Shown here: piece by piece, positions 46,219-61,984 of the stretch
How positions within the stretch are numbered: position 1 is the first letter of the stretch
How the letters are laid out: each line of letters begins with the position of its first letter
DNA from: Candidatus Multivorans sp.
GTDB lineage: Bacteria; Acidobacteriota; Thermoanaerobaculia; Multivoradales; Multivoraceae
DNA: 64,000 nucleotides
Reading direction: 5' to 3'
Assembly: GCA_965222875.1 (NCBI GenBank)
Contig: CBDCVC010000003.1
Coordinates: 1,921,788-1,985,787, forward strand
Notes under the pieces: generated by a model
What the model was told of the DNA's origin: nothing
Databases searched by the model: none
What the model saw: only the letters and a program-made list of their open reading frames with translations
Program-made: the position numbers and the translations under genes

Positions 46219-46270
46219 ACGGCCGGCCAGTTTGCGGCTACAATCCGCGCCTACTCGACTTGGAGGACGC

Positions 46271-47074: not shown

Positions 47075-47094
47075 CGGCGTCGGCGCGACGACGC

Positions 47095-47195
47095 TGGCGC
47101 AACGCCTGGGTTGCACCCGCCCGGTTCGGGTTCCGGGGGGCGCCCTCCAGGCACCGTTCGCGCTTGGTCGGATATGGGGGAGTTGGCGCTCACTA
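47095..47195. repeat. Intergenic repeat family B, copy 1 (downstream of paralog 1)
   Basis: CTGGGTTGCACCCGCCCGG...CTCCAGGCACCGTTCGCGCTTGGTCGGATATGGGGGAGTTGGCGCTC. Related copies at 51035-51130 (inverted) and a 19-bp partial at 50551-50569. Confidence 0.5.
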
Positions 47196-47520
47196 CTTTC
47201 CGCTCGGAATCTACCGAAGCACCAGAGAACACAGGTACTTGTGGCAGGTGACAGCTAGGGCTAGGGATTGTCCCCCAACATGGTCCCGCTTGCTAAGCGA
47301 CGCACACGAAGGCCCGGTCTTTCCTCGCCGCACTACTGGCGACCCGCCGCCGACGGCGCACCACGGTCGACATCCACTGAGAGCACTCCAGGACCTCACG
47401 GTGCTTCGTCGGACGTGGCGCACGCGAGCGAGGCGCACCCAAGACCAAGGGGCCGTAGCACCCAGGACTGTCGTATAGTCGTCAAGTGATCAACGTTTCG
47501 GCCCGCAACCCGCAGTTCTC

Positions 47521-48063
47521 TTGGCATTCTTCCTAGGGTGCTTAGTGGATCACCCAGGAGGCTCCGTGACCAACAGGAATCATGGCGGGGGAGCAGGACG
47601 GCGCCTCCATCGAGAGGCTGCCTGTAGCAAGGTTGCCGGCCCGTCCCGCGCCAATCCGTCACTCTACACGCGGGGACGCCTGCGGTTGTTGCCTGCAACA
47701 GCGGTCGTGGCCCTTCTGGCTGGATGCGGCAGCCTCGCCGTTCTCAATCCCCACTACGCGCCGGTCGAACGGCTCAAAGAGGCCCGAGAACGCGCGCTCG
47801 ATCTACTGGCGACGATGCCTGACGAGTACCCCTGCCGGGAGGACTGGAAGCAAGTGGTTGTCGCCGCGGATCACGCGCTGCGGACAATGCACCAGTGGCA
47901 GCAGGCCGGGGTTGGCTGGCACTGGAACCAGACCGAGGCCTTCGACCGACAGGTGGGCTCCCTGGTGCTCGCCGCGAACGACTGCACCCAGCGCCGCGGC
48001 GTGAGCCTGGGCGACCTGGTCGATGCCGAGGTAGAGCGACGCCGACAGTCTCCGAAGAACTGA
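47521..48063 (+). CDS. Hypothetical lipoprotein (start uncertain, probably an internal TTG/GTG near 47686)
   Basis: Lipobox LLAGCGS after a hydrophobic stretch. Rest has no recognisable domain. Confidence 0.4.
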   Translation: MAFFLGCLVDHPGGSVTNRNHGGGAGRRLHREAACSKVAGPSRANPSLYTRGRLRLLPATAVVALLAGCGSLAVLNPHYAPVERLKEARERALDLLATMPDEYPCREDWKQVVVAADHALRTMHQWQQAGVGWHWNQTEAFDRQVGSLVLAANDCTQRRGVSLGDLVDAEVERRRQSPKN

Positions 48064-48146
48064 AAGCAGAAGGCCGCCAGATAGCACTGGCGGCCCAACC
48101 ATCAACTTTCAAGGGTAGCCAGCCCCGAAAGGAGGAATCGTCGCTT

Positions 48147-48398
48147 ATGCCCGACGACAGGAGTAGTGTAGTTGATCAACACGAGCGAGACGACGAACGT
48201 ATCCTCGCCGCCCTGTTCAGCCTGCGACGGATCGCTGACCGCGACGTGGTGGCGACGATGCTCGAAGAGTTCCTGAACTACTGCGAGCAGGACCCCGAAG
48301 GCGCATTCGACCGCTTCTGGCGCGACGACGACGATTCGGACGACGACGACGATCTGGACGACGACGATGGGCCGGACGACTCGAACACCCCGTTCTAA
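48147..48398 (+). CDS. Small hypothetical protein with poly-Asp C-terminal tail
   Basis: 84 aa. Strong SD (AAAGGAGGA) 8-10 bp upstream. Tail DDDDSDDDDDLDDDDGPDD is encoded by a GAC-rich tract. Confidence 0.5.
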   Translation: MPDDRSSVVDQHERDDERILAALFSLRRIADRDVVATMLEEFLNYCEQDPEGAFDRFWRDDDDSDDDDDLDDDDGPDDSNTPF

Positions 48399-48408
48399 GC
48401 AGGATCAC

Positions 48409-48684
48409 ATGAGCGATCAAGCTTCACTGATGTTTGCAACGGTGGCGGCACAGCTTCTCTACGAATCGCACAACCCCGAGCCCACGCCACGAAACGATGA
48501 ATTGGCCAAAGCGGTGTTTCAGAGGATCGGTGAACTCCGGGATTGGGTGGTGAACCCAAGCGGTGAACCCAATCCCACGCCCGACGAGATAGCCGCTCTT
48601 GATGCCATGCTGTCGATGTTCGCCGGCGTGTTCTCCGCTCGGTGTGGGGTTCCGCCACCCGCGCCACCACAGTCGCTGAACTGA
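48409..48684 (+). CDS. Small hypothetical protein
   Basis: 91 aa beginning MSDQASLMF, 11 bp after the previous stop. No recognisable domain. Confidence 0.4.
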   Translation: MSDQASLMFATVAAQLLYESHNPEPTPRNDELAKAVFQRIGELRDWVVNPSGEPNPTPDEIAALDAMLSMFAGVFSARCGVPPPAPPQSLN

Positions 48685-48849
48685 CCGTCACGGGGTTCAG
48701 GGCAACCGTTGGAGGCGTTTTGGACCGAAGTTCTGCGGCTTTCAAGGTACGCGGCGCGCCGGAGACCGTTGCGGGGCTTGAGCTTCCGGTTGTCCGCGGA
48801 GAGTTTCTCTCTGCCGTTTGTAGCCATGTAGTATCGTGATTTACGGTAT

Positions 48850-50500
48850 ACATTTGCTCGCAGTTCGACTACAATGAGAAGTCATGTACATCGAACGAGT
48901 GCCCAATCGCAACTCACCCCCGGCCGTGCTCCTGAGAGAGTCCTACCGACAGGACGGAAAGGTCCGCAAACGCACCCTCGCCAACCTCTCCAAGTGGCCG
49001 GACCACATCGTCGAAGGACTGCGCACGCTCCTCAAGGGCGGCGTCGCCCTGCCGGCGCTCGACGCGGCCTTCGAGATCCTCCGCTCCAGACCCCACGGAC
49101 ACGTCGCCGCCACCCTCGGGGCCCTGCGCAGCCTCGGACTCGAACGACTCCTCGACCGCCGACCCTCCCGCGAACGGGCGCTGGCCGTCGCCATGATCGT
49201 CGCACGCATCCTGGAACCGGCCTCCAAGCTCGCTGTCGCCCGTGGACTCGCAAACGAGACCATGAGGCACACCCTGGGCGAAGAACTGGGTGTCGAGGAG
49301 GCGGACGCCGACGAACTCTACGCCGCCATGGACTGGCTGCTCCGACGCCAGGAACGCATCGAGCGGCGACTCGCCGAGAGGCATCTCGAAGACGGCGCCC
49401 TGGTCCTGTGCGACGTGACCTCGGTCTACTTCGAAGGCTCGAAGTGCCCGCTCTCCCGGCGCGGGTACTCCAAGGACGGCAAGCCGGGAAAGGCCCAGAT
49501 CGTCTTCGGCCTGCTGTGCAACCGCGAGGGCTGCCCGGTCGCGGTGGAGGTCTTCGAGGGCAGTACGGCCGATCCTTCGACCCTGAGCGCCCAGGTGCAC
49601 AAACTCAAGGAACGCTTCTCGCTGGAGAGGATCGTCGTGGTCGGCGACCGCGGCCTGCTCACCTGCGCGCGCATTCGCGAGGACCTCGAACCCGCCGGGC
49701 TGTCGTGGATCACCTCCCTGCGGGCGCCTGCGGTCCGCAAGCTGGCGCAGGAGGGCCACCTGCAACTGTCGCTCTTCGATGAGCGGGACATGGCCGAGAT
49801 CAGCGTCCCGGAGCTGTATCCCGGCGAGCGCCTGATCGTGTGCCGAAACCCGCTGCTGGCGGCGGAGAGGACCCGCAAGCGCCTGGAACTGCTCGACGCC
49901 ACCGAACGCCGGCTTCAGGCCGTCGCCGAAGCGACAAGGCGCCGAAAACGCCCTCTGAGGGGAGAGAAGGAGATCGCCGTGCGCGCCGACCGCGCCCTTT
50001 CCGCCAAGAAGGTCGGAAAGCACTTCGACATCGAGATCGAAGACGACGGATTCCGCTACTCGCGCAACCAGGAGCGCATCGACGCCGAAGCCGCTCTCGA
50101 CGGCTTCTACGTCATCCGCACCAACGTCTGCGAAGACCGCCTCGCCGCCGACGAAGCGGTCCGCTCATACAAGAGCCTCAGCTGCGTCGAACGAGCCTTC
50201 CGAAGCTTCAAGAGCGTCGACCTCAAGGTGCGGCCCGTCCACCACCGCCTCGCCGGACGCGTCCGATGCCACGTCTTCCTGTGCATGCTCGCCTACTACG
50301 TCGAGTGGCACATGCGACGCTTGCTCGCGCCGCTGCTCTTCGACGACCACGACCACCGGGACGAACGCAACTCGCCCGTGGAACCGGCCCGCCGCTCGCA
50401 GGCCGCCCGCACCAAGGCCGGCCGCTAACGAACAACGGACGGACTCCCCGTACAAAGCTTCCAGACTCTGCTCGCCGACCTCGCCACCCTGACCAGGAAC
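48850..50500 (+). mobile_element. IS1634-family element (approximate extent)
   Basis: Lower-GC left end immediately upstream of the transposase ATG. Right boundary placed before the paralog-tail remnant at 50520. Ends not resolved by eye. Confidence 0.35.
48884..50428 (+). CDS. IS1634-family (IS4 superfamily) transposase
   Basis: 514 aa. N-terminus MYIERVPNRNSPPAVLLRESYRQDGKVRKRTLANLSKW is the characteristic IS1634-group start. DDE region further on. Confidence 0.75.
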   Translation: MYIERVPNRNSPPAVLLRESYRQDGKVRKRTLANLSKWPDHIVEGLRTLLKGGVALPALDAAFEILRSRPHGHVAATLGALRSLGLERLLDRRPSRERALAVAMIVARILEPASKLAVARGLANETMRHTLGEELGVEEADADELYAAMDWLLRRQERIERRLAERHLEDGALVLCDVTSVYFEGSKCPLSRRGYSKDGKPGKAQIVFGLLCNREGCPVAVEVFEGSTADPSTLSAQVHKLKERFSLERIVVVGDRGLLTCARIREDLEPAGLSWITSLRAPAVRKLAQEGHLQLSLFDERDMAEISVPELYPGERLIVCRNPLLAAERTRKRLELLDATERRLQAVAEATRRRKRPLRGEKEIAVRADRALSAKKVGKHFDIEIEDDGFRYSRNQERIDAEAALDGFYVIRTNVCEDRLAADEAVRSYKSLSCVERAFRSFKSVDLKVRPVHHRLAGRVRCHVFLCMLAYYVEWHMRRLLAPLLFDDHDHRDERNSPVEPARRSQAARTKAGR

Positions 50501-50519
50501 CGCGTAAGCACGCCCAACG

Positions 50520-50569
50520 CCGGCGGCGGCGGCTCCGAGTAGCCGACTCCTGGGTTGCACCCGCCCGGC
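50520..50569 (+). repeat. Remnant of a third paralog 3' end plus repeat-B head
   Basis: CCGGCGGCGGCGGCTCCGAGTAG matches the last 23 nt of paralog 1 (...TGGGGSE*) apart from the stop codon. It is followed 7 bp later by CTGGGTTGCACCCGCCCGG, the first 19 nt of repeat B. Confidence 0.5.
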
Positions 50570-50932
50570 TTCCCGGGTCGGCCGTAAGGCTTGGATCCCT
50601 TCCGATAGCATCGAGAGGCAGGCACTCCTATGTGGAAGGGCCCGAGCCCCAAACTCCCAGTGACAGCGTTCTTCATCTTCAGCCTCCTCGTTTCGGTGGG
50701 GTTTCTGCTGATGATCACAATCGATTTGGCGCGTGACATCCGACCGCCGAAAGATCGCCGGTCGTTGTGGTCGTGGCGAGGTGCGCGAAAGAAGCCACGG
50801 AAGCTGCGCCGCTAGGGACAGCTTGACTGGACACGCCGGATAGCTGTCGGTGTGGCCCCCCAGTGCGGCGGGGACAGTTGCCGCATGCCCTGGCTCGTCG
50901 GAGAAGGTGCGATGGTCCTACGCCGTCCAGCC

Positions 50933-51130
50933 CGTGCAGGGGTCTGAGGGGTCAACTCCAGGTGGCTCGGAACGAGCGACGGCCGGCGCCCTCACAGGAA
51001 CCGACGACCAACCGGAGCGAGTGGGGTGAAGCGAGCGCCAACTCCCCCATATCCGATCAAGCGCGAGCGGCACCTGGAGGTTGACCCCTCAGGCCCCGGA
51101 ACGGGCGGGTGCAACCTCCAGCCGCGGCCA
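50933..51130. repeat. Repeat family B copy 2 with MITE-like internal 22-bp inverted repeats
   Basis: TGAGGGGTCAACTCCAGGTG at 50933-50955 and CACCTGGAGGTTGACCCCTCAGG at 51064-51086 are inverted. 51035-51125 matches the 47095-47195 repeat in reverse complement. Confidence 0.45.
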
Positions 51131-51195
51131 CAGCCCACTCCAGCCGTAGCCACCGGCTGCTATGGTCGGCGGCTCAACTCCCTGGAGGACAATCG

Positions 51196-51681
51196 ATGCG
51201 CCGCACTCTCTTTGTTCTGTTGATCGCTATTCTTCTGTCCGTGACTGGCGTCGCTGCCGACAACCACGGGCCCAAGGTCGCCGACCTGGCCTGGATGACC
51301 GGGACCTGGAGCGGCGGCATCGGTCAGGGCTCCCTGGAGGAGAACTGGGCAGTGCCGAAGAACGGCTCGATGGCGGCGCTGGTGCGGGGTTTCTCGCCTG
51401 ACGGCACAACGAACATGATCGAACTGATCTCGATCGAGGAAGAGAACGATTCCCTGGTGCTGCGTCTCAAGCAGTGGAACCCGGGCATGACGCCACGCGC
51501 CGAGGGCTTCCAGGTCATGAAGCTCGTTGAGTCGAAGGACCGGATGGTCAGGTTCGAGAACATCGGCGAGCGCGGCCTGGCCAAGCTCGGCTACAGCCGG
51601 CCTGCCGACGACACATTCGTGATCTCGATCGAAACCCCCACCGGTCAGGCGTTCGACATCGAGCTCACCGCGGTCAAGTAG
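51196..51681 (+). CDS. Hypothetical secreted protein (lipocalin-like DUF candidate)
   Basis: Signal peptide. WMTGTWSG...EENW motif. ~160 aa mature domain. Confidence 0.45.
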   Translation: MRRTLFVLLIAILLSVTGVAADNHGPKVADLAWMTGTWSGGIGQGSLEENWAVPKNGSMAALVRGFSPDGTTNMIELISIEEENDSLVLRLKQWNPGMTPRAEGFQVMKLVESKDRMVRFENIGERGLAKLGYSRPADDTFVISIETPTGQAFDIELTAVK

Positions 51682-51692
51682 AAACCGCGGTC

Positions 51693-52364
51693 GTGACCAT
51701 GGCTCGGAGCCGGCTGGTACCGCTGGCGTCCGTGGCGCTGTTTGTAGCGGGCGTCGAGTTGTTCGCGGGCAGCAGCGCCGTCGCCCAGCGGAAGCCGGCC
51801 AGCCCCGCCGGCGAGGCCGCGGCGCAGATCGGCGGAGTCTTCGATCCCCGCTCCGGCTACGTCAACGGCGGCTGGATCGAGGTCAAGTTCGGCCGGCCGC
51901 TCCGCCGCGGCCGGGACATCTTCGGACCGCCGGACTTCATCGCCTTCCTGAACGACGGCGCACCGGTCTGGCGTGCCGGCGCGAACTACACGACCCGGCT
52001 GATCACGGAGTTGCCGCTCGTCATCGCCGACATACGGCTCGAGCCGGGCGAGTACACGCTGTTCATCCAGGTCGGCCCGGAACGATGGATCCTGATCATC
52101 TCGACGTGGCCGGCGCAGGAGACCTACGACTACCAGGAACGGGAAGCGCTGTTCGGCGCCTACGGCTACACCCCGGACAGGGACCTGCTGCGCACCGACA
52201 TGACGCTCCAACCCCTGCCGATCTCCTTCGAGCAGTTGTCGTGGCAGTTTCTCGACGTGACCCCGGAGGGAGGTCGGTTGGCACTCCTCTGGGACCGGCA
52301 GATGGCGTCCGTGCCATTCCAGGTGGTCGGCCCGGCGGCCGAGTCCGCAGCCCCACCTGAGTAG
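51693..52364 (+). CDS. DUF2911 domain-containing secreted protein
   Basis: Signal peptide. Blocks QIGGV...GGWIEVKFGRP..RGRDIFG...VWRAGANYTT...EPGEYTLFI match the DUF2911 pattern. Confidence 0.6.
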   Translation: MTMARSRLVPLASVALFVAGVELFAGSSAVAQRKPASPAGEAAAQIGGVFDPRSGYVNGGWIEVKFGRPLRRGRDIFGPPDFIAFLNDGAPVWRAGANYTTRLITELPLVIADIRLEPGEYTLFIQVGPERWILIISTWPAQETYDYQEREALFGAYGYTPDRDLLRTDMTLQPLPISFEQLSWQFLDVTPEGGRLALLWDRQMASVPFQVVGPAAESAAPPE

Positions 52365-52372
52365 CGCGATCA

Positions 52373-52816
52373 ATGAGCGAAACCGCAGCTACGGGTCAGA
52401 GAATGCGCGGCCGGTGCCTGTGCGGCGCGGTGCAGTTCGAGGTCGACGTGCCGGAGCGCACCTACAGCGTCTGCCACTGCGGCATGTGCCGGCGCTGGTC
52501 CGGCGGGCCGCTGATGTCCGTCCACTGCCCCGAGCCCCGGACGGAGTGGCTGAACGACGAGGGGCTGACCTGGTACCAGGGAACGCCCTGGGCCCAGCGG
52601 GGCTTCTGCTCCCGCTGCGGATCGAGCCTGTTCTGGCGGCTCGCGCAGCAGCCGGAAGGCATGTTGGTCGTCAGCGTCGACGCGCTGGAGGATGCCGACG
52701 GGTTCCAGCTCGACCGCCACATCTACAGCGACGCCAAGCCCGACCGCTACGACTTCGCGGACGATCGGCCGCGGTTGACGGAGGCGGAAGTGCTGAAGGA
52801 AGTGGGGCTGGGTTAG
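52373..52816 (+). CDS. GFA family protein (glutathione-dependent formaldehyde-activating enzyme/CENP-V fold)
   Basis: 147 aa with CLCGAVQF...CHCGMCRRWSGGP and CSRCGSSLF zinc-binding Cys motifs. Confidence 0.7.
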   Translation: MSETAATGQRMRGRCLCGAVQFEVDVPERTYSVCHCGMCRRWSGGPLMSVHCPEPRTEWLNDEGLTWYQGTPWAQRGFCSRCGSSLFWRLAQQPEGMLVVSVDALEDADGFQLDRHIYSDAKPDRYDFADDRPRLTEAEVLKEVGLG

Positions 52817-52850
52817 CGGAGCCCGACCTTACTGCCACGGTGCGACTGAT

Positions 52851-55800
52851 CTAGCCGAGCAAGCGCTCTTCAAGCACCTTGATCGCGTCGATCGCACTGG
52901 TCCCAAGGGCAGCATCATCCTTGTAGCCTCTCAGAAGGCGTCGGTCCGTGCTGTTTCCAAGGCGCGCCAAGACATCCATGGCGAAAGGGAGGTTCTGTCG
53001 CTCGTCGTAGCTTGAACCACTCCCGAAGTAGCCAATCTGGCTCGACGGGTCGGTCAGAGCGTGGCGACAGACTTCAACGGCCTCGGCCGGAAAAGCACTT
53101 ACGATCGATAGTTCCGGCGATGTCGCTCCGGCAGGCCCCTTCAAGTTCTCAGCCAGTCCCCACCTCCGAAGTTCGTGCTCGCAATGCCGGATCACGTCGA
53201 GCGCAGCACCGCGGTCATGCCGGAGCAGGAGCTGAAGGGGTGCCTCGCAAGAACGCCGCCGCGTTATCTCGTCCAGATCGTGGCGGTTGAGCCAATAGAG
53301 AATCGCCCCGCAAGCAGCCAACGCTTCCGCTGAGTACCCGTCGCCCCCCGTTTGGTCAGGTAGAGGGCAACCGAGTCGACCGAGAACAACGTGAGCGACC
53401 GCGAAGACCACAATCGCTTCCTGCGGCATGAAGCTGTCGGTCGGCGGCAAAGCGGTCCACAGCGAGAAGCAATCCCCGCTGTCAGGGTCGCCGAATGCCG
53501 CCAACTCCAGGAGAAGAGGCAGCAGGAAGCCCATCGTGTCCGGAACACCCTTCGCCGCCATCATGAGGAGGGTCTTGCGGTCGTGTTCCGGAAGCTCGGT
53601 GATCGCCTCGCTGTACGCTCCGCGATAGGGGTGAAGGTCGAGTCGCTTCGCGTAGAGACCATACGCCTGTAGGCGACGACTCGCGTCTTCGGGACCGGCG
53701 AGACACCGACTGATCTGTTGCCGGACCACTGCTACATGCTCGCCTTCGGAGTCTTCAAAGGCACCGAGGATCTGCAGCGTCTCTCCAATCGAGGATGCGA
53801 TAAGCGCATTCCTCGGTTGGGGCAACTCCGCAATCGTCGCAATCAGAACCGCCCTAGCGTTCTCCTCAGATGGTTGAGACGTCGCCGCGCCGTGCAAGAG
53901 GTCGAGCTTCAAGTGATAGGGCGCGTGTGTCCAGTGCGACTCAATCGCTCCGATCAGGAACGGGACCGCAAGGTCGGCACCCTGGCTCAGCATCAGAAGC
54001 AGGTAAACCTGTCCGGGCGACAAGGTCTCGACCTCCTGACTCTTCCGGATGGTCCGGCTGACAGCATCGGATGGCCTGTCAACGAAGCAACCGTGCAGGC
54101 GCGCGCAGATGTGCGAAACGCCCGCCCACGCACTCTGTGGGCCAACGGGGCTGACATAGGCGTTTGCGAACAAGGCGTCTCTCAGCGAGACCTTCAGTTC
54201 CCGAGCGCCCTCACGAAGGCGTATCTCTTCCTCGGCGATCCTCTGGTCCAGGACACCGATCGCCTCAAGGGCCTCCCCCAAGTACCGCCCCTCGCCGATC
54301 AGCTTAGGCATTGCCGCCAAGAGGGCGCGTTCCAAGCGGGTCCAGGGCCTCAGTGTCTTCTCCTCAAAGGAGGCCTTCCACCACGCGTCGTCCGACAGTC
54401 CGAAACTCACCCCCAACGCCTCCGCCCGAAGAGCCTTCCAAAGCGCTGAATAACGGGCTTCCGCCCATTCCCGTGCTTCCTGACCGCATTCGCCGCGGAC
54501 ACACGCAACAACGGACTCCACATCGGTCAACCCTTCCAGGACCTCATGTCGGAGGAGATCGTCGTCTATGGCACCTATGATCAGTGCCTTGCGGCCTGCA
54601 TGTGGCGGGGATTCCAGCGCCTTCAGCACGCGCCCGGCCAGGCCGTCAGCACGGCGAAGCACGTTCTCCGCCGCGAAAGCATCGAAGAACATCTCGTGCG
54701 CGAAGCTGACCCTGTTGCCACGCGACACCATGAATCCGCCGTCTGCAAGGCGGACGCTGTCCCCTGAGGCGCGCTGCTCGTCAGCCTGTCGATCGAAATC
54801 CCGGCGTGACAAGCTGAACGCCACCCGATCCGAGAGCCAGCCTGCCAAGTGCGAGAGTAAAGGGATCCCCTCGGTAGCAGAATCGCCCAGCCGTTTTCGC
54901 GCGTACCCGTAGAACAATGCATGGCGGCTACTGCCGGGCTCCATCTCCTGACCGATTTCCCCGATCATCCTGGCCTCCAGACCGGACGTAACTGCTTCAA
55001 GCAGGTCCTCCGATTGCTTCGGCAGCGCGGCGCCGCCGGTCCAGCTCAGAGCGATGGCCACCTTCGTCTCCCTATCGGGCGCCCGCACTTCGACTTCACG
55101 AAGCCTCAACCTGTCTCCCCGCACCAAGGGGATCTGCGAGGTAACTACAACGCCTCCCCGGTACATTCGGGCCAGCGCAGCCACCCTGCGCGTGAGAAAG
55201 GCTCGATCCGCTTCCGCGCATTCGTTGTAACCGTCAACGACGAACACGAGGGGTCGGTTCAGAGCTCGCGCCGCCCTCAGCAGCTTTACCGCCGGTGAAT
55301 CAACCAAGGTCCTGACTTCGCGCTCAAGGACCGCTTTCGCGTTTCCAGCGTAGTCCTTGACGGGAATCAGGACTGGGATCCCATCGAGTTCCGTCAGTGC
55401 GAGCGCAGCCTTCGCGGCCAAGAGGGACTTGCCGCAGCCGGATGGTCCCTTGATCAGGACATCGGTCCGTTCCTCGCCGATCAGACGGCGTACTTGCCCG
55501 GAAGACACGTCCTTGCCTTCCACTCGGCAGTTGAACGGAATCATCGCCCCCGGCCGCATCTGGTCGCGGCGGAAGGCCGTCACGTACTGCCGAAGAAGAT
55601 TCTCCGCTTCGAACAGCGCCGAATCACACGCGCTCTCAAGCCCAGAAACCGCGGTAAGGCGATGGCGCTCGGCGAGAGCCTCCCAGTCATCGAGCGATGG
55701 GCCGCCCTCCTGCCTCTGTCGCAACAACCCATCCAGGTCATTCAGCCCTCCCACTGAGACCTTGAAGTCGCCCTCGCAGGCCTTGGAGCCATCCGGAATG

Positions 55801-56312
55801 CCCCGTGTGAAGATGACGGCCGCATCCGGGTACGGGACCTCGCTTCCGACGATTGAGCCCATCGCGTCCCTCACCTTGTTCTTGGCGTCAAGGGCCTGAA
55901 GGTAGGGATTCCGGAAGTTCACCCAGTCACCGGAAGCCGCTTGGTACTGCCATAGCCCGTTCCTGCCACCCCGGATCGGTCGAGAGTGACCCTTGGCCTC
56001 GATGACCAGGGCCATCTCCTCCAGGCCCACGATGAGGTCTATCTGACGCCCTCCGAGGTTCACATTCGCGAGGACCACCGCGTCCCGTTTGTCACGCCCG
56101 AGCAGCGATAGGACCCGTTCGAGCGCAGCCCGATCGGACCCGTGGGCAACCCGATCTCCAATGTAGAGGCTCGTCACGGACAGCTCGCGGGACAGCGTGG
56201 CTGCTGTAGGCGAGACGACACAGCGACAGACACCGGAACGCGCTGGATGCCCGGCTGCTAGGCCCGCCGGCCCTCGTTGATCCGCCGACTGAGGCAAGCG
56301 GGGCACATGCAC
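52851..56312 (-). CDS. NERD nuclease-related domain, NACHT/STAND P-loop NTPase and long alpha-helical repeat (HEAT/ARM-like) protein; candidate defence NTPase
   Basis: N-terminal NERD signature (IDLIVGLEEMALVIEAKGHS...NPYLQAL). Walker A LIKGPSGCGKSLLA. NACHT-type Walker B LVFVVDGYNECAEAD. ~700 aa of helical repeats. True start probably internal, at GTG/ATG ~56150-56250. Confidence 0.6.
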   Translation of the reverse strand: MHVPRLPQSADQRGPAGLAAGHPARSGVCRCVVSPTAATLSRELSVTSLYIGDRVAHGSDRAALERVLSLLGRDKRDAVVLANVNLGGRQIDLIVGLEEMALVIEAKGHSRPIRGGRNGLWQYQAASGDWVNFRNPYLQALDAKNKVRDAMGSIVGSEVPYPDAAVIFTRGIPDGSKACEGDFKVSVGGLNDLDGLLRQRQEGGPSLDDWEALAERHRLTAVSGLESACDSALFEAENLLRQYVTAFRRDQMRPGAMIPFNCRVEGKDVSSGQVRRLIGEERTDVLIKGPSGCGKSLLAAKAALALTELDGIPVLIPVKDYAGNAKAVLEREVRTLVDSPAVKLLRAARALNRPLVFVVDGYNECAEADRAFLTRRVAALARMYRGGVVVTSQIPLVRGDRLRLREVEVRAPDRETKVAIALSWTGGAALPKQSEDLLEAVTSGLEARMIGEIGQEMEPGSSRHALFYGYARKRLGDSATEGIPLLSHLAGWLSDRVAFSLSRRDFDRQADEQRASGDSVRLADGGFMVSRGNRVSFAHEMFFDAFAAENVLRRADGLAGRVLKALESPPHAGRKALIIGAIDDDLLRHEVLEGLTDVESVVACVRGECGQEAREWAEARYSALWKALRAEALGVSFGLSDDAWWKASFEEKTLRPWTRLERALLAAMPKLIGEGRYLGEALEAIGVLDQRIAEEEIRLREGARELKVSLRDALFANAYVSPVGPQSAWAGVSHICARLHGCFVDRPSDAVSRTIRKSQEVETLSPGQVYLLLMLSQGADLAVPFLIGAIESHWTHAPYHLKLDLLHGAATSQPSEENARAVLIATIAELPQPRNALIASSIGETLQILGAFEDSEGEHVAVVRQQISRCLAGPEDASRRLQAYGLYAKRLDLHPYRGAYSEAITELPEHDRKTLLMMAAKGVPDTMGFLLPLLLELAAFGDPDSGDCFSLWTALPPTDSFMPQEAIVVFAVAHVVLGRLGCPLPDQTGGDGYSAEALAACGAILYWLNRHDLDEITRRRSCEAPLQLLLRHDRGAALDVIRHCEHELRRWGLAENLKGPAGATSPELSIVSAFPAEAVEVCRHALTDPSSQIGYFGSGSSYDERQNLPFAMDVLARLGNSTDRRLLRGYKDDAALGTSAIDAIKVLEERLLG

Positions 56313-57039
56313 CCCGAGTTCCCGAGCTCCTTGTGAGCCAGCCCGTGAACGACGCCGTCTTCTGCGTCGAACTTGCTCGCGATGCGGTCGAAGTATTGCG
56401 CGTCCCCAGCTTGATATCGACGAAAGACCGCGTAGGCCACATGGTCAGCTAGCTGAATCACCCGAGAAGCTCGCGAGTCAACGAAGAGCGGCGTATCCGC
56501 CAAGCGCCTGATGACGCCCCACCGTGTGCCCAGGGTGCGAAACCCAACAGACATCCGCTGAAGAGTCGTCTCATAGGCACTCTTGTCGAGGATCACGAGT
56601 CCCCGCTGCCTGTCGCCTTCGGCTTGCAGCCGCCCCAGGTAGCGATCGAATCGAATCGGCTGCAGAGGTCCTCGAACGCGATCTCCATCGGGTCTCGATT
56701 CGGGAACGAAGCCTTGTGGACCACACAGGCAAACGCTCGTGCCGTGTCATAGGCGCTTGCCAACACGTCGAGAACAGACTTGATCGAGCCCCTGGCTTCC
56801 TCCTGACTCAGTCCCTTCCACGGCGCACTTCGTCGAGAGTAGATCTCCGAGGCGTGAAACTCGATGCCGTGGGGATCACCCGCGTCGATGCTCTCCGCGA
56901 GTTTGTCCAGCTCCTTGGTGATCCAGTGCGACTGCGCCTCGTAGACCGACACTCCACCGAGGACGAGGTAGTCCTCCTTGACGTTGCCGGCGGAGCCAGA
57001 GTCGTCGAGGTAGAGCAGATGCACGGTCGTGGCACTCAA
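56258..57039 (-). CDS. DUF3800 family protein, split into two overlapping ORFs (56593-57039 N-terminal part; 56258-56596 C-terminal part)
   Basis: N-terminal LYLDDSGS (the DESG motif) and C-terminal VIQLADHVAYA (the QxxD motif) are the two hallmarks of DUF3800. The ORFs overlap by ATGA at 56593-56596, so this is a frameshifted gene or two coupled pieces. Confidence 0.5.
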
Positions 57040-57169
57040 AGAAAAAGCAGCCGGGTGAGCTAGTGCTCAGCGGACCGCCGAGGCAGCCCTCCCAACCGCT
57101 TCAAAGATCCTGACCGATGTGGACCACCGTTGTCAATGACCCACGGAGCACGGGGACCAAGTTCGGCTG

Positions 57170-57283
57170 CACACCGGATGCGGGCAGGATGCCCGCGTAC
57201 CATCCGTGCGCCCGATGACGGGCACACGGAGTGGTTCGCGTGTGGCGCGGGTCGCGCCACACGGGTTCCCAGGGGTCCCCGTC
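57170..57283. repeat. Intergenic repeat family A, copy 2 (immediately 3' of paralog 2)
   Basis: GGATGCGGGCAGGATGCCCGCGTACCATCC...GTGGCGCGGGTCGCGCCAC. See 39777-39880. Confidence 0.6.
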
Positions 57284-57294
57284 CTCCGGTCCTG

Positions 57295-58437
57295 CTAGCC
57301 GCCCTCGCCGCCGCCGGTGGTCTCGGCGGCTGCCGCCAGGGCCTCTGCCTCCAGCAGCCGCGCGCCGCGCATGATGTTGCCCATCGCGTAGTTGCCTTCG
57401 TGGCAGGCGTACTCGTAGACCTTGTTCGAGGTCTGCGGCCAGGTGTAGTCGCCCTTCCAGGGCAGGGTCCAGGTCGACGGGTCCTCGACGGTGAACTCGT
57501 AGTGGAGCGTGTCTGCGTCGAGGCGGGTGAAGCGCTCGGTGACGTGCAGGTCCCGTGACGCGGAACTCAGTCCCGGCCGGTCGCCGAAGTTCTTCGTGCT
57601 GACCACCAGGGTGTCGCCTTCCCACCAGCCGATCGAGTCGCCGAGCCACTTGCGGACGCCCGAGTCGTCGTGCTCCGAGTTCAGGCGGATCACCCGCGCG
57701 TCGTGGTTCATCTCGACCAGGATCATCACGTGGTTCTGCGTCTGCACGATCCGCTTGTGATTGTTGTAGAGCGCCGGCAGCATCGGCGGTCCTTGGGTGG
57801 AGCCGAAGCCCATGATGCAGCGCTCGGCGTGCGGCCGTTGTTCGATGTCGTCGTACGGCCCCGGCGCGTCGGCTCCTCCTTCCTGAATCCACCAGGCGAC
57901 ACCCTTGTTGGGCCGGAACGGCGTCAACGCTCGGCGAGCGGCGCGGCGCGCCCTGGCCGCGTCGGTGATCGGCGGCATCCGGCCGTTCGCGGGCTCCGAG
58001 ATGATCGAGGTCCGATAGGCGCCGTCGATGGACACAGCGCTTGAGCCGCGGTCGATCCAGAACGCGTTGTAGCCGCCGACATTGCCCGCGCCCAGGTTCT
58101 CGCGCCGAGAGTCGTCGAAGCCGACCGGGGGCGCGCCCGTATCGGACGGAGCGGCGCGATTCGGGTCGCTCCTCTCGTTGGCCTTGGCCAGCAACGTCTG
58201 CTCTTCCTCCTCGATTGCCTTCGCCTCCTCGGCGGTCAGGAACAGGTTGTCGCCGTACTTCGCCGGCCGCTGGAGCGGCGTCAGCGTGGCGATGTTGTAA
58301 ACGCCCGAGAGATCAGGCTTGCCGTCCGCGGTGCGCGGGACGCCGTCCTGGGCGGCAACCGCCGGGACGGCGATCAGAGCCGCGAGGCCCAGGGTGAACG
58401 CGGGGCGGAGCAACATTGCCGAGACGGTGTTGTCCAT
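57295..58437 (-). CDS. Secreted protein of unrecognised family (paralog 2, longer N-terminal region)
   Basis: Signal peptide. Shares most positions with paralog 1 over ~250 aa (YRTSIISEPANGRMP, HAERC.MGFGST, VMILVEMNHDAR, KVYEYACHEGNYAMG, TGGGEGG tail). Confidence 0.6.
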   Translation of the reverse strand: MDNTVSAMLLRPAFTLGLAALIAVPAVAAQDGVPRTADGKPDLSGVYNIATLTPLQRPAKYGDNLFLTAEEAKAIEEEEQTLLAKANERSDPNRAAPSDTGAPPVGFDDSRRENLGAGNVGGYNAFWIDRGSSAVSIDGAYRTSIISEPANGRMPPITDAARARRAARRALTPFRPNKGVAWWIQEGGADAPGPYDDIEQRPHAERCIMGFGSTQGPPMLPALYNNHKRIVQTQNHVMILVEMNHDARVIRLNSEHDDSGVRKWLGDSIGWWEGDTLVVSTKNFGDRPGLSSASRDLHVTERFTRLDADTLHYEFTVEDPSTWTLPWKGDYTWPQTSNKVYEYACHEGNYAMGNIMRGARLLEAEALAAAAETTGGGEGG

Positions 58438-58608
58438 CGATCTTCCTCCGACTGTTTCGAACTCTTGACGCGCCGGCGATCGTACCAACGGAGACGGGCG
58501 GCCGAGCCCTCGCCGGCGGGCCTTTGCCCGTCAGCATCCCGCTATGCTCCGCGCCAACAACGGATCAGGCAGGTACCCCTCTGCCATGGAGCGGGGAGCG
58601 AGCGTGAC

Positions 58609-60846
58609 ATGAGTTCGAACCATGTACCGGGCGACGTGCGACTCACGAGCGCAGTGGCTGTTGCGGCGCTCCTGGGGCTCCTGGCCTCGGGCGCAACCCT
58701 CGGCCAGTCCGGCCCACTGATCGAGCCGGTCACCGACGCCGAACTCGCCGCCACGCCCGACGGCGACTGGTTGAGCTTTCGCGGCAACCTGTCGGCCTGG
58801 GCCTACACCGCGCTCGACGCGGTGAACACGGAGACGGTCGGGCAACTCGACTTCGCCTGGGCGGCCCCGATGGAGGCCGGCCCCAACGAAGCGACGCCCC
58901 TGGCGCGAGGCGGCATCGTCTACCTGCCGCAAACGGGCGACGTGATCCACGCGCTCGATGCGCGTACCGGAGACCTGATCTGGGAGTACCGCCGCGAACA
59001 CAACTACCTGGATCCCGAGGGCGCCGACCCGGAACGGCGCTTCGCCCAGGGCCTGGGTCGGATCACCCGCAACATCGCCATATGGCAGGACGGCCTGTTC
59101 GTCGCCACGATGGACGCCCACATCATCCGCCTGGACGCGAACACCGGCGAGCTGGTGTGGGAGACCCGGGTCGGCGACAGCCGCATCGCCCACTCCTCCG
59201 GCCCGATCATCGCGAACGGCAAGGTGATCAGCGGCCGCTCCTGCAACATGTCCGTGGACGGAGGCTGCTTCCTCGCCGCCCACGACGCCGAGGACGGCCG
59301 CGAGTTGTGGCGCTTCTACACGATCCCCCGACCCGGCGAGCCGGGCGACGAGACCTGGGGCGGTCTGCCGCTCGAGCGCCGCTACCACGTCGGCGCCTGG
59401 CACGTCGGCTCCTACGATCCCGAACTCGACCTCATCTACTGGGGCACGTCGGTACCCGCTCCTTCGCCGGAGGTTCTGCGGGGCAGCGGCGCCGGGTCGC
59501 TCCTCTACTCGAACAGCACCCTGGCGCTCCGTCCCGACACCGGCGAACTGGCCTGGTACTTCCAGCATCTTCCCCGGGACAACTGGGATCTGGACCATCC
59601 CTTCGAGCGCATCCTGGTCGATCTGGAGATGGAACCGAACGAGGACGTTGCCTGGTCCATCAATCCGGCGCTCGAACGCGGCGAGCGGCGCCGGGTGATG
59701 ACCGGCTTCCCCGGCAAGACCGCCATCCTCTGGACCCTGGACCGTGAGACCGGCGAGTTCCTGTGGGCGCGTGAGACCGTCTTCCAGAACGTGATCACGC
59801 ACATCGATCCGCACACCGGGGCGGTCACGGTCAACGAGGAAGTCATCCCGAAGGCCCGCGACGAGGAGTACGGCGTCGTCTGCCCTGCGGCGAGCGGCGG
59901 CAAGGACTGGCCCACCGCGGCCTACAGTCCCCTGACCGAGGCCGTTTACGCGCCTCTGCAGGACGTCTGCATGTCGCCGATCATCACCGGCACCGGCGTT
60001 GGGCCGCCCCAGGGCTACGGCATCAACTTCCGCATGCAGTTGGCGCCAAACAAGGCGACGGTCGGGCGCCTGGACGCAGTTTCGGCGCGCACCGGCGAAT
60101 GCCTGTGGCGGTTCGAGGAACCCGCCGGGACGATGTCGGTCATGACGACGGGCGGCGGGCTCGTCTTCGCCGGCAACACGAACCGGCGGTTCCGGGCCTT
60201 CGACGCGACGACCGGCGACATCCTCTGGGAGACGGTGCTGGGCGGACCGGTCACCGGCTTCCCGGTCAGCTTCGCCGTGGACGGCGAGCAGTACGTGGCG
60301 GTCACCGCGGGCGGCGGCGATCTGTTGAGCGGTCTCTTCAACCGCTTGTCGAACCTGACCGTCCGCTCCGGCTCGAACATGCTCTACGCCTTCAAGCTGT
60401 CGGACACCGCGGGGCGCGCGCCAGTCGCACAGCCGGTGGTAGCCGACGCGGCCACAGCCGAACCGCGGCCGATGATCATGATCGACGCCCCGCTGCTCGA
60501 GACGTCAGAGCCCTGTGCGACCTTCGCCGCGCATCAGGCCGAGCGCGGCGCAGCCCTCTACCAGGAACACTGCACCGAGTGCCACGGGCCCACGCTGCGC
60601 GGCGGCGCCCAAGGCGCGGCTCTCGCCGGCCGCAGCTTCACGAGCTACTGGCAGAACCGCGCCGCCAGCGGGCTCTACCGGACGATCCGCGAGACGATGC
60701 CCCAGGGTAAGGAAGGGACGATCGGCCCCGCGGCCTCAGCCGACCTGGTCGCCTTCCTGCTGCGCGAGAACGGCGCCGAGGCCACCGGCGAGTTCGGCGC
60801 GGACGTCGAAACGCTCGACGGCCAGCGCACCTGCTTCCGGCAGTAG
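58609..60846 (+). CDS. PQQ-dependent quinohemoprotein dehydrogenase (PQQ beta-propeller plus C-terminal cytochrome c domain)
   Basis: Signal peptide. Repeated W-containing propeller motifs (GDLIWEY, GELVWET, GRELWRF, GEFLWAR, GECLWRF, GDILWET). C-terminal CTECHG heme-binding motif. Confidence 0.75.
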   Translation: MSSNHVPGDVRLTSAVAVAALLGLLASGATLGQSGPLIEPVTDAELAATPDGDWLSFRGNLSAWAYTALDAVNTETVGQLDFAWAAPMEAGPNEATPLARGGIVYLPQTGDVIHALDARTGDLIWEYRREHNYLDPEGADPERRFAQGLGRITRNIAIWQDGLFVATMDAHIIRLDANTGELVWETRVGDSRIAHSSGPIIANGKVISGRSCNMSVDGGCFLAAHDAEDGRELWRFYTIPRPGEPGDETWGGLPLERRYHVGAWHVGSYDPELDLIYWGTSVPAPSPEVLRGSGAGSLLYSNSTLALRPDTGELAWYFQHLPRDNWDLDHPFERILVDLEMEPNEDVAWSINPALERGERRRVMTGFPGKTAILWTLDRETGEFLWARETVFQNVITHIDPHTGAVTVNEEVIPKARDEEYGVVCPAASGGKDWPTAAYSPLTEAVYAPLQDVCMSPIITGTGVGPPQGYGINFRMQLAPNKATVGRLDAVSARTGECLWRFEEPAGTMSVMTTGGGLVFAGNTNRRFRAFDATTGDILWETVLGGPVTGFPVSFAVDGEQYVAVTAGGGDLLSGLFNRLSNLTVRSGSNMLYAFKLSDTAGRAPVAQPVVADAATAEPRPMIMIDAPLLETSEPCATFAAHQAERGAALYQEHCTECHGPTLRGGAQGAALAGRSFTSYWQNRAASGLYRTIRETMPQGKEGTIGPAASADLVAFLLRENGAEATGEFGADVETLDGQRTCFRQ

Positions 60847-61984
60847 CCCCTGGGAACCCGGGCGTCTCGCCCGCACCTGGGAACGCGGGCGTCTCGCCCG
60901 CATCCGCCGCATGATCATCCATGATCGTGGCCGTCCTCGTCATCACCGTCGTGACCGGCCTCGTCATGGTCATCGTGGCCAGCCCCGTCATCGCCCCGGC
61001 CTCGCCATGGTCGTCGTGACCAGCCTCGTCATCGCCGTCGTGGCCAGCCTCGTCATGATCGTCGTGACCAGCCTCGTCATGGTCATGCTGCTCATGCTGC
61101 ACACCGTGATCGTGACCATCGTGCCCGTCGCCGGTGTGCGGATGCTGATGCCAGAGGCCGAGCACCGCCATCGTGCCAATGCCGATCAGCACAAGCGCGA
61201 ACTTGAGCGACCGGTCCTTGTCCCGCTCGGGCATCGGAACGTCGTCGTCACCGATCAACGCGCTTCGCACGTAGTGCGCAATCCGGTCCCGTTCCCGGGA
61301 GAGTTCGGCATCGAGCACGTCCATCACCGCCACGTAGATGAAGGTGCCCGCCGCAATCGCGTTGAAGCTGCCCTCGAAGAGGATCGCCGTTCTCCCCTCG
61401 AACACTTCTCCCGCCACGGTGCCGAGCAAGATCCCGAGAGGCGTCATGACCGAGAAGAACGCCAGTGTCTGCCATAGCGCCCGGTTGCCCGCGGCGTGGG
61501 CGGTCACGATCAGGGCGAACGCGGCAGAGCCCTTGTGGAAAAGGATGCCGAACATCACGACCAGTACGGCCGCGGCTTCGGGCTGAAGACCCAGGGCCAT
61601 CCCCGCGATGATCGAGTGCACCGACAGCACGATGAGCAGGACGAAGGCGTAGAACGGCGGTCTCGTAGGCTCTCCCTCCTCGCCGAGCCTCGAGTTCCGG
61701 CCTTCCAGAAGGACCCGATCGATCAGGAGCAGCAGGCCGACCCCCAGGGCCGCGAGCAGAGGGGCCAGGGGATAGTCGACCACTCCCCTGAGCGCTTCAT
61801 CGGCTTCGGGCAGCAGGTGAACGAAGCCGACGCCGAGGAAGATGCCCCCCGCGAGCGCATTCCCCAAGGAAAGGTACCGGCGGCTCGCCCGTTGCTTCGC
61901 GACCAGGATGGGAATCGCGCCGCCCACAAAGGCGATCGCCAGGATCGCCAGGCCGGCGATGATCTTGATGGCAAGCGGGGACAT
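60638..61984 (-). CDS. ZIP family metal transporter with C-terminal His/Asp-rich tail (true stop uncertain; last ~90 codons overlap the PQQ gene antisense and are probably not real)
   Basis: Eight TM helices with ZIP signatures (HSIIAGMALG in TM4, HKGSAAFALI in TM5). Tail HQHPHTGDGHDGHDHGVQHEQHDHDEAGHDDHDEAGHDGDDEAGHDDHGE. Confidence 0.6.
   Translation of the reverse strand: MSPLAIKIIAGLAILAIAFVGGAIPILVAKQRASRRYLSLGNALAGGIFLGVGFVHLLPEADEALRGVVDYPLAPLLAALGVGLLLLIDRVLLEGRNSRLGEEGEPTRPPFYAFVLLIVLSVHSIIAGMALGLQPEAAAVLVVMFGILFHKGSAAFALIVTAHAAGNRALWQTLAFFSVMTPLGILLGTVAGEVFEGRTAILFEGSFNAIAAGTFIYVAVMDVLDAELSRERDRIAHYVRSALIGDDDVPMPERDKDRSLKFALVLIGIGTMAVLGLWHQHPHTGDGHDGHDHGVQHEQHDHDEAGHDDHDEAGHDGDDEAGHDDHGEAGAMTGLATMTMTRPVTTVMTRTATIMDDHAADAGETPAFPGAGETPGFPGATAGSRCAGRRAFRRPRRTRRWPRRRSRAAGRRPGRLRPRGRSSLPYPGASSRGSSGRARWRRGSASSS
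60930..61100. repeat. Imperfect 24-bp tandem repeat (~6 units) encoding the His/Asp-rich metal-binding tail
   Basis: Units such as CGTCATCGCCGTCGTGGCCAGCCT and CGTCATGATCGTCGTGACCAGCCT repeat head-to-tail. Coding sense is the minus strand. Confidence 0.55.

Follow-up and report, generated by a model that had tools for sequence, protein, structure and literature searches.

Restriction-endonuclease-fold effectors joined to a NACHT module and a repeat sensor have already been described in bNACHT25 (Kibby et al., bioRxiv 10.1101/2022.07.19.500537; PMC12169576). Such REase-NACHT proteins and the nuclease-bearing Avs3 and Avs4 protect against phage (bioRxiv 10.1101/2022.07.19.500537; PMC13581612). 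A nuclease effector, a STAND module and a large alpha-helical sensor are combined in Avs3 and Avs4 (PDB 8dgc, 8dgf) and in the wider Avs families (Lee et al. 2026, PMC13581612), in which effectors are exchanged within a family and defence islands are the genomic setting. [quoted passage not shown] A different kind of partnership is formed by the RNA motifs DUF3800-I to DUF3800-XI, which lie next to DUF3800 genes (Weinberg et al. 2017, PMC5737381; RF02915).

The 64,000-nucleotide stretch of Candidatus Multivorans sp. DNA analysed here (the window) contains a gene for a 1108-aa protein that is probably a single-gene, NLR-like antiviral STAND of the Avs/bNACHT type, and the DUF3800-RNA unit upstream of it is best regarded as separate (Table 1). 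The protein has a tripartite order of N-terminal effector, central STAND and large C-terminal presumed sensor. As in bNACHT25-type proteins, a PD-(D/E)xK-superfamily nuclease precedes a NACHT-type STAND and a C-terminal sensor within a single gene; the effector is Mrr-like in bNACHT25 and NERD here. Given this precedent, the architecture is less unusual than the preliminary description, which did not recognise the domain order as described, had assumed. With Avs3, Avs4 and the wider Avs families it shares the nuclease effector, the STAND and the large alpha-helical sensor, as well as effector exchange and the defence-island setting of its family. With Mokosh type I, Nhi-like proteins, PglW and DndF it has the Pfam NERD domain in common, which those proteins combine with a helicase or kinase, whereas here it is followed by a NACHT-like STAND and a helical sensor.

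Table 1. Features of the NERD-STAND and DUF3800 genes in the window
Feature	Position	Strand	Basis or remark
DUF3800-VI RNA motif (Rfam RF02915)	57048..57098	-	cmscan; a U-rich tract lies between it and the DUF3800 start codon
DUF3800 gene, disrupted, RNase H2-like fold	56258..57024	-	5' frame to premature TGA 56593-56595, then +2 frame to stop 56258
5-bp tandem duplication CGATT CGATT	56649..56658	-	frameshifts DUF3800
NERD-STAND-helical sensor gene	52851..56177	-	1108 aa from the most likely start, GTG 56177; range includes stop codon
NERD PD-(D/E)xK nuclease domain, residues 1-160	55698..56177	-	Pfam PF08378
NACHT-like STAND NTPase module, residues 216-512	54642..55532	-	nucleotide-binding domain, helical domain, winged helix
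C-terminal all-alpha domain, residues 513-1108, presumed ligand sensor	52851..54641	-	AF2 model

Domain architecture of the 1108-aa protein

The maximal ORF of the gene (52851..56312, minus strand) encodes the 1153 aa that had originally been taken as the protein. The most likely start is, however, the GTG given in Table 1, because an identical database protein (P0001), which comes from an independent contig, is called from there and the alignments of homologues begin there. Upstream of this start the long ORF adds 45 aa, and this extension overlaps the end of DUF3800. The family is widespread, with 653 clusters (50% identity) matching its profile at E<=1e-30.

The N-terminal domain, of alpha/beta type with a pLDDT around 90 in the AlphaFold2 model, matches the Pfam NERD family (PF08378) with 31.5 bits (gathering score 22.1) over residues 65-151 of the long ORF, which bears out its initial assignment as a NERD PD-(D/E)xK nuclease. 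D47 (in QIDL) and the E60-A-K62 stretch (in IEAKG) are invariant across 26 NERD-type relatives and are the putative catalytic residues. A sequence search for a relative of this part with a solved structure found none.

The NTPase carries a Walker A motif (GPSGCGKS, residues 244-251), a Walker B motif (VVDGYNEC, with D315) and a TSQ motif (346-348). Walker A fits GxxxxGK[ST], and its residues G244, G247, C248, G249 and K250 are invariant in 95 sequences; D315, G316, N318 and E319 of the Walker B motif (hhhhDGYNEC) are invariant among relatives. The signature D[GAS]hDE, described for the NACHT Walker B motif and found in bNACHT (bioRxiv 10.1101/2022.07.19.500537), is matched at four of its five positions, with Asn in place of the D of the final DE in every family member, which leaves DGYNE. 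The STAND succession of nucleotide-binding domain, helical domain and winged helix is present, and the winged helix contains SFAHEMFFDAFAAE with an invariant histidine, H494, presumably equivalent to the position used to hyperactivate bNACHT25. TSR is expected at the NACHT position that is occupied here by TSQ. Given the DGYNE Walker B and the TSQ in place of TSR, NTP hydrolysis may differ from that of a usual NACHT.

Unlike bNACHT, the window protein stays below the Pfam threshold for NACHT (PF05729; 19.1 bits, gathering score 26.7). Relatives score 24.0, 26.0 and 28.0 bits, a precomputed PF05729 match is found in about 20 among the 120 relatives listed, and the family as a whole lies close to the limit of what the Pfam model detects. 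The STAND/NACHT-like assignment therefore rests on structure comparison. NLRP3, NOD2, NLRC4 and Avs3/4 are the best structural matches of the NTPase; NACHT/NLR and Avs structures gave both the best matches and the longest alignments. Animal NACHT domains are the best fold matches, a likeness to bNACHT, and Foldseek ranks Avs4 and Avs3 near the top. The NACHT-type P-loop first proposed thus stands as far as the conserved Walker motifs are concerned, its NACHT character is a structural assignment, and the ATPase is a STAND rather than a non-STAND P-loop protein.

The remaining, C-terminal part of about 600 aa consists almost entirely of helices, with a pLDDT mostly above 85 in a model that reaches a pLDDT of 89.2 and a pTM of 0.78 for the whole protein. 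The helical nature of this part had been recognised before, at an extent of about 700 aa that is now reduced. No match to it was found in Pfam, PADLOC or PDB sequences; this sensor without a detectable sequence relative among solved structures is a further difference from bNACHT.

The upstream DUF3800 gene and its RNA element

The DUF3800 gene shows the Pfam match (PF12686), an N-terminal DDSG, a C-terminal QxxD and an RNase H-like fold; earlier work (PMC7736814, PMC10910872) is in line with a fold of the RNase H2 kind. It appears as two ORFs (56593..57039 and 56258..56596). The split was already noted in the preliminary description, but the frame changes at the 5-bp duplication (Table 1), not at the ATGA overlap in 56590-56600. 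Deletion of one CGATT copy restores a single DUF3800 ORF, and in an independent metagenomic contig with 99% identity (L001) the duplication is absent and the DUF3800 gene, of 253 aa, is intact; the two sequences differ in exactly that 5-bp indel and in nothing else across the aligned stretch. Judged from the sequence, the DUF3800 gene is inactivated in the window by the duplication.

A DUF3800-VI RNA at 57048-57098 had been overlooked earlier. The full-length model of RF02915 was matched by cmscan with 63.5 bits (gathering score 35, E 4e-11), and in 6/6 other loci checked the RNA likewise lies 5' of DUF3800. The aligned copies vary in their inner hairpins, still score above threshold and are followed by a U-tract. 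The DUF3800 gene and its 51-nt element are an exact match to the known pairing of DUF3800 and RNA motif (PMC5737381), although the DUF3800 of the window is frameshifted, unlike that of the known pairs.

Relatives and genomic settings

The NTPase and helical domain are common to relatives that carry other N-terminal domains, namely SMEK, HNH, TIR and DUF4062. Scores of these domains are 220 bits for a ThsB-like TIR, 110 for SMEK_N, 75 for TIR_2 and 72.9 for DUF4062, and HNH domains and, separately, an extra nSTAND3 module also occur on this NTPase and sensor. In short-pAgo defence systems, SMEK and HNH serve as nuclease effectors (PMC10810196). PADLOC 2.0 (Avs1-5, bNACHT01/09 and others), whose use had been proposed at the outset, and the NCBIfam anti-phage models do not recognise the NERD-STAND protein, which in contrast to bNACHT matches no model of a named system; there were only weak partial matches to PDC-M16A (18.7 bits, the sole PADLOC match to the NERD part), mad8 (18.4 bits) and DS8_antiphage (11.5 bits, cutoff 790).

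A genome scan yielded 44 STAND loci in many phyla with a patchy distribution. In raw counts, HamA/HamB (Hachiman) adjoins the STAND homologue in 12/45 loci and GajA/GajB (Gabija) in 5-6 of 45, with integrases in 8/45 and a TrwC relaxase in 3/45. A CapP-like M78 peptidase (CapP-like regulators) and AbiJ_NTD4 recur as immediate neighbours. Eleven plasmids carry STAND homologues, some beside toxin-antitoxin genes, and a search of viral contigs found no copy of the family. The homologues do not stand in a core-genome context but occur in islands, on plasmids and next to defence genes, and the Avs/bNACHT logic suggested for the protein from the outset gains support from the swapped effectors, from the Hachiman, Gabija, integrase, CapP-like and AbiJ-like neighbours and from the plasmids.

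The immediate neighbours in the window are metabolic genes, not defence genes (GFA, DUF2911, DUF6265, PQQ dehydrogenase). The GC content is 0.62-0.64 over 52-57 kb versus 0.67-0.70 in the flanks. The IS1634 element and inverted paralogs reported earlier are both there, the former as a DDE transposase gene at 48884-50428.

Proposed function and alternatives

By analogy with described STAND receptors, the 1108-aa protein would be a nucleotide-bound, autoinhibited monomer in the uninfected cell. Its helical C-terminal domain would bind a conserved phage protein or an infection-altered host factor, which would free the NACHT-like NTPase for oligomerisation. Oligomers would then gather and activate the N-terminal NERD nuclease domains, and cleavage of DNA by these would halt phage replication and sacrifice the cell (abortive infection).

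It is conceivable that DUF3800 and the NERD-STAND gene form one two-gene defence operon, as was first proposed, with DUF3800 and its RNA acting as co-effector, regulator or antitoxin. The two genes lie on the same strand 80 bp apart, the arrangement is kept in two related genomes (L001, L011) with 84-99% nucleotide identity, and DUF3800 has been tied to defence in retron type VII (PMC7736814), Cas12a2/a3 (PMC10910872, PMC13594972) and Cas13 CASK (bioRxiv 10.64898/2026.08.25.746378). Such an operon is nevertheless highly improbable. DUF3800 is found beside the STAND gene in 2/46 loci only, those of the two closest relatives, both of the Ca. Multivorans-like lineage, and is absent from the other 44. 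Conversely, close DUF3800 homologues (70-82% identity) in three other, unrelated contexts, for which five contigs were read, have no STAND neighbour (0/3 independent contexts) and all carry their own DUF3800-VI RNA, a conserved partner wherever checked. Conserved co-occurrence, for which a search had been suggested, is thus lacking. In addition, each gene is found broken without the other, DUF3800 here and STAND in L011, and the DUF3800 family is far larger and far better conserved than the STAND family, its conservation across phyla being unusual. DUF3800 and the DUF3800-VI RNA therefore appear to be a separate, widely distributed RNA-plus-RNase-H-like unit outside the STAND system, which happens to adjoin the STAND gene in the Ca. 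Multivorans lineage.

Two further explanations concern the STAND gene itself. The locus might be a decaying remnant in which the gene has lost function or expression and persists as a mere ORF. Besides the frameshift in the adjacent DUF3800, the orthologue of the nearest species (L011) has a frameshift at residue 634, 6/45 related loci, the closest species included, have a disrupted copy, and a scan for sigma-70-type promoters alone found no promoter-like site. The STAND family is indeed often decaying; assembly errors may, however, account for some frameshifts in long-read MAGs. In the window the ORF is full length with every invariant motif residue intact, an identical protein is known from the independent contig, and comparison with a 75%-identical homologue gives a dN/dS of 0.25 (about 0.25 in each of the three parts), which points to purifying selection and long-term constraint, so that decay of this copy is unlikely. 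Quite improbable, too, is a role outside immunity, as a signalling or regulatory NTPase or as a maintenance (addiction) factor of plasmids or islands instead of a phage sensor. In its favour, STAND clades unrelated to defence are numerous and intermingle with defence clades (PMC13581612), members of this family are found on plasmids beside toxin-antitoxin genes, and the C-terminal sensor is about as conserved as the NTPase and not hypervariable. Against such a role stand the lack of a DNA-binding or transcription-factor output domain, the N-terminal modules, which are all conflict-type effectors (NERD, SMEK, HNH, TIR, DUF4062), the repeated Hachiman, Gabija and CapP-like neighbours and the patchy spread across phyla.

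If the reading as a single-gene antiviral STAND is confirmed, bacteria would have one more family of NLR-like receptors, with a NERD nuclease as output and an uncharacterised sensor, and the family would be a candidate in which to find a new phage trigger. More tentatively, and with some doubt, the NERD/SMEK/HNH/TIR family may be a distinct, unnamed Avs-like family whose sensor perhaps responds to a cue new to STAND immunity and whose motifs perhaps form a binding-only switch. This cue, of phage or host origin, might be one that no STAND is yet known to respond to, and DGYNE together with TSQ might allow switching on by nucleotide binding without hydrolysis. More speculatively still, the Ca. 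Multivorans lineage may have co-opted the neighbouring DUF3800-RNA unit as a modulator. The search for a new trigger is made practical by culturable Mesorhizobium, Bradyrhizobium, Xanthomonas and Agrobacterium strains that have homologues. DUF3800 and STAND, seemingly one system, are now separated, and the loci provide clean examples of the pair of DUF3800-VI RNA and DUF3800, known since 2017. In RefSeq, family members are named only 'NERD domain-containing protein', a label that conceals their STAND immune-type architecture.

Domain make-up of the large protein

Three features follow one another on the reverse strand at 52.8-57.1 kb of the window, namely a structured RNA motif, a DUF3800 gene and a large gene encoding a NERD-STAND-helical sensor protein (hereafter the STAND gene). 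GC content is 0.62-0.64 at 52-57 kb versus 0.67-0.70 on both flanks. The protein of 1153 residues reported in the preliminary description corresponds to a genuine ORF, but its additional 45 codons run over the DUF3800 3' end. Translation most likely starts at GTG 56177, which would yield 1108 residues, because P0001, an identical protein in a public collection, is called at this length from this codon and all full-length homologues in the alignments start within a few residues of it. A promoter/terminator scan was uninformative, with no promoter-like site and with terminator-like sites not exceeding the shuffled expectation.

Features of the locus and of its setting, in coordinates of the window
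Feature	Coordinates	Strand	Remark
Structured RNA motif	57048-57098	-	51 nt; first of the three features
DUF3800 gene	56258-57024	-	two frames; second of the three features
STAND gene	52851-56177	-	third feature; 80-bp gap to DUF3800
Maximal ORF of the STAND gene	52851-56312	-	1153 aa; mechanical ORF list
DUF3800 pieces	56593-57039, 56258-56596	-	mechanical ORF list
Tandem duplication CGATT-CGATT	56649-56658		5 bp
Transposase gene	48884-50428		DDE_Tnp_1
Block with transposase gene and several small ORFs	~47083-51145		~47.1-51.1 kb
Left inverted paralogous segment	46363-47063	+	inside ORF 46232-47074
Right inverted paralogous segment	57306-58027	-	inside 397-aa ORF 57295-58488
REP-like short repeat	47102-47124, 50546-50568, 51085-51116		direct and inverted copies
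Tandem repeat	48324-48380		tail of ORF 47895-48398
Membrane-protein-like ORF	60638-61984	-	448 aa

The combination of a NERD domain, a P-loop NTPase and a helical C-terminus, recognised earlier from the sequence, was confirmed. In a Pfam scan NERD reached 31.5 bits (gathering score 22.1), and NACHT, AAA_16, NPHP3_N and nSTAND3 gave sub-threshold matches only, around the P-loop. Catalytic and nucleotide-binding residues are intact: the PD-(D/E)xK residues D47, E60 and K62 do not vary across 26 aligned relatives (41-75% identity), and the Walker A GPSGCGK, the Walker B DGYNEC and a histidine within the motif SFAHEMFFDAFAAE are likewise invariant in the alignments. This histidine, H494, may correspond to that of bNACHT25 and NLRC4. 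A confident AlphaFold2 model (pLDDT 89.2, pTM 0.78; input of 95 sequences) has a STAND fold, in which an N-terminal alpha/beta domain (residues 1-160) is followed by the P-loop domain at 216-365, the helical domain at 369-450 and, at 455-510, a winged helix that bears a beta-hairpin; about 600 residues of C-terminal helices complete the model. When the family profile, the NERD segment and DUF3800 were each searched by sequence against the PDB, they returned P-loop matches and a weak NLRC4 match only, or none.

The large protein is a divergent NACHT. NACHT proteins are expected to carry a TSR motif, which reads TSQ at the corresponding position here. The published signature D[GAS]hDE (bioRxiv 10.1101/2022.07.19.500537) reads DGYNE. 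Both deviations are kept family-wide, and the Walker B Asn and the Gln of the TSQ motif may point to weak NTP hydrolysis. The gene is under purifying selection, with a dN/dS of about 0.25 in each of its NERD, NTPase and sensor parts; conservation of the sensor is slightly below that of the NTPase.

A family with exchangeable effectors in defence surroundings

A word-indexed search returned 372 relatives, the best 120 of which are 40-100% identical, and a profile search run exhaustively over 1.84 billion representatives gave 1562 cluster representatives at E<=1e-3 and 653 at E<=1e-30. The family is real, though of modest size. Its effector is modular: many relatives align only from about residue 185 on and carry another N-terminal module on the shared NTPase and sensor. 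These modules include a ThsB-like TIR (220 bits in PADLOC; Pfam TIR_2), a second TIR_2 type (75 bits), DUF4062 (72.9 bits), SMEK_N (110 bits, in many members) and HNH, together with a weak Cap4-nuclease match and N-terminal sequences that look Mrr-like by eye and have no Pfam match. SMEK and HNH likewise act as the nucleases of defence systems built on short Argonautes (PMC10810196). The hallmark of Avs and bNACHT proteins is a constant chassis on which conflict-type effectors are swapped. In three relatives of about 1400 residues (P0076, P0091 and P0110), the shared NACHT-like NTPase and sensor are preceded by an added nSTAND3 module (74 bits) and by more N-terminal sequence, so that each polypeptide holds two STAND NTPases.

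Scanning one genome for each species yielded 44 loci, whose hosts belong to the Alpha-, Beta- and Gammaproteobacteria, Acidobacteriota, Actinomycetota, Bacteroidota, Verrucomicrobiota, Chlamydiota, Spirochaetia, Planctomycetota and Obscuribacterales, a patchy pattern of horizontal transfer. Neighbouring ORFs were clustered and the cluster representatives annotated. Hachiman (HamA and HamB; PADLOC E=0 and 5e-112) adjoins the STAND gene in 12 of 45 loci and Gabija (GajA and GajB) in five to six; phage-type integrases occur in eight of these loci and a TrwC relaxase in three. HamA/B, UvrD/GajB and integrases also recur among the 131 immediate neighbours (<=1.25 kb) annotated with Pfam and PADLOC; CapP-like M78 peptidases were found there four times and AbiJ_NTD4 proteins twice. 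Homologues also occur on eleven plasmids, where the annotation goes no further than 'NERD domain-containing protein'; the one in Xanthomonas hortorum adjoins an AbiJ-NTD4 gene, and the one in Agrobacterium fabrum lies beside a nucleotidyltransferase/DUF6602 pair and about 6.5 kb from toxin-antitoxin genes. The nearest homologue outside the lineage (75% identical) is flanked by two integrase genes and adjoined by a DNA methylase. No relative of the STAND gene was found in the viral contigs scanned.

The CapP-like peptidase gene lies just 5' of the STAND gene at L006:8383-9309 (PADLOC capP, E 3e-72) and in three other loci, which suggests that in some relatives transcription responds to DNA damage. 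Directly 3' of the STAND gene, three closer relatives share a conserved same-strand ORF of 204-214 residues (L006:13315-13929, L007:13431-14075, L008:13324-13956) that could be a clade-specific accessory gene; neither Pfam nor PADLOC matched its representative from L006.

The STAND gene is disrupted by frameshifts or an insertion in six of 45 related loci (L011, L030, L035, L036, L038 and L046). In L011, from the nearest species, the gene (L011:10001-13322) is frameshifted at residue 634, and in L036 (Mesorhizobium newzealandense) about 1 kb is inserted at residue 663. Errors in long-read assembly may account for some of these disruptions.

If the protein works like Avs3/Avs4, bNACHT25 and animal NLRs, its helical C-terminal domain would bind either a conserved protein of the phage or a host factor that infection has altered, ligand binding would free the NTPase for oligomerisation, and the clustered NERD domains would cut nucleic acid and thereby abort infection. 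A REase-fold effector joined to NACHT and a repeat sensor is an established anti-phage architecture, as in bNACHT25 and Avs3/4. The Avs/bNACHT-like reading stood in so far as the protein is an immune-type STAND. The domain order is less unusual than the preliminary description supposed, in that REase-NACHT-sensor proteins are already established; literature searches for NERD with NACHT, STAND or Avs found no description of NERD-NACHT. PADLOC, proposed earlier as a check, and NCBIfam gave weak partial matches only for the large protein. Since no named-system profile fits and the searches found no paper on NERD-NACHT, the protein is best filed as an uncharacterised representative of a known architecture, outside every named Avs or bNACHT family. 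Lee et al. 2026 (PMC13581612) have a 589-clade tree and 198 defence-associated STAND clades, among which the NERD-STAND family may already be counted; NERD is absent from the main text of that article. Experimental work on the family is a credible prospect, since culturable hosts carry it, but it will not surprise a specialist.

DUF3800, its RNA and the question of a two-gene module

The preliminary description had joined a split DUF3800 gene and the STAND gene into one candidate defence module. Both DUF3800 pieces are real, but the frame does not change at their ATGA overlap: a three-frame translation reads as DUF3800 in the second frame (RFDRYLGRLQAEGDRQRGLVILDKS...) already from about 56650, next to a 5-bp tandem duplication, and removal of one copy restores a single ORF. 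L001, an independent metagenomic contig 99% identical to 51067-57873 of the window, lacks exactly these five bases and encodes an intact DUF3800 protein of 253 residues. A shift at the ATGA overlap and programmed frameshifting are therefore rejected, and the split is either a mutation of very recent date or an error of the assembly. Decay of the two genes is independent within this lineage: it has struck DUF3800 in the window and the STAND gene in L011.

The module itself was examined by a phmmer search of every ORF in 49 loci with the intact DUF3800 protein as query, by neighbour-ORF clustering and by Pfam/PADLOC annotation of the 131 immediate neighbours. The co-occurrence is limited to L001 and L011 (Candidatus Multivorans sp.; Acidobacteriota, Thermoanaerobaculia), both syntenic with the window at 84-99% nucleotide identity; DUF3800 has fewer than two members in the Pfam scan of immediate neighbours. 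More than 1600 relatives of the DUF3800 protein were found, the top 120 being 67-91% identical and their named sources including Sumerlaeia and Planctomycetes MAGs, making this a family far larger and far better conserved than that of the STAND gene. Three DUF3800 relatives were placed on contigs, none near a STAND gene: one downstream of a tRNA, with an integrase fragment and a methylase-REase fusion as neighbours, one adjoining AAA_22 and SocA_Panacea genes, and one between the housekeeping genes for SpoU methylase and GcpE.

The RNA motif is the sole Rfam gathering-level match in the whole window, a full-length match to the DUF3800-VI RNA (RF02915; 63.5 bits, gathering score 35). The motif stands immediately 5' of the DUF3800 start, has a U-rich tract after it and precedes DUF3800 in all six other loci tested (L001, L011, L050, L053, L054 and L055). 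In the aligned copies the inner hairpins vary, the scores remain above threshold and the U-rich tract follows. This RNA-gene association was described by Weinberg et al. (PMC5737381). Because DUF3800 is sparse beside STAND genes and keeps its own RNA across contexts, DUF3800 and the RNA form a self-contained unit that stands beside a STAND gene only in this lineage, and the two-gene module is rejected.

Local setting in the window

An accessory island had also been proposed. The transposase gene (then called IS1634) and the inverted paralogs (78-87% complementary) are real, but the immediate neighbours of the pair are metabolic (GFA, DUF2911, DUF6265 and PQQ dehydrogenase), and the island is therefore essentially the 5-kb pair itself. 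The block around the transposase gene is missing from both L001 and L011 and is a strain-specific insertion. Similar paralogs are carried by L011; the 397-aa ORF has no Pfam match.

Copies of the REP-like repeat GGTTGCACCCGCCCGG surround the transposase block. Tandem repeats of the GACGACGAC type encode the Asp-rich tail of an ORF without Pfam match. The membrane-protein-like ORF contains a long His/Asp/Glu-rich run (HDGHDHG...DHDEAGHDDHDEAGHD) that hints at a metal transporter loop.
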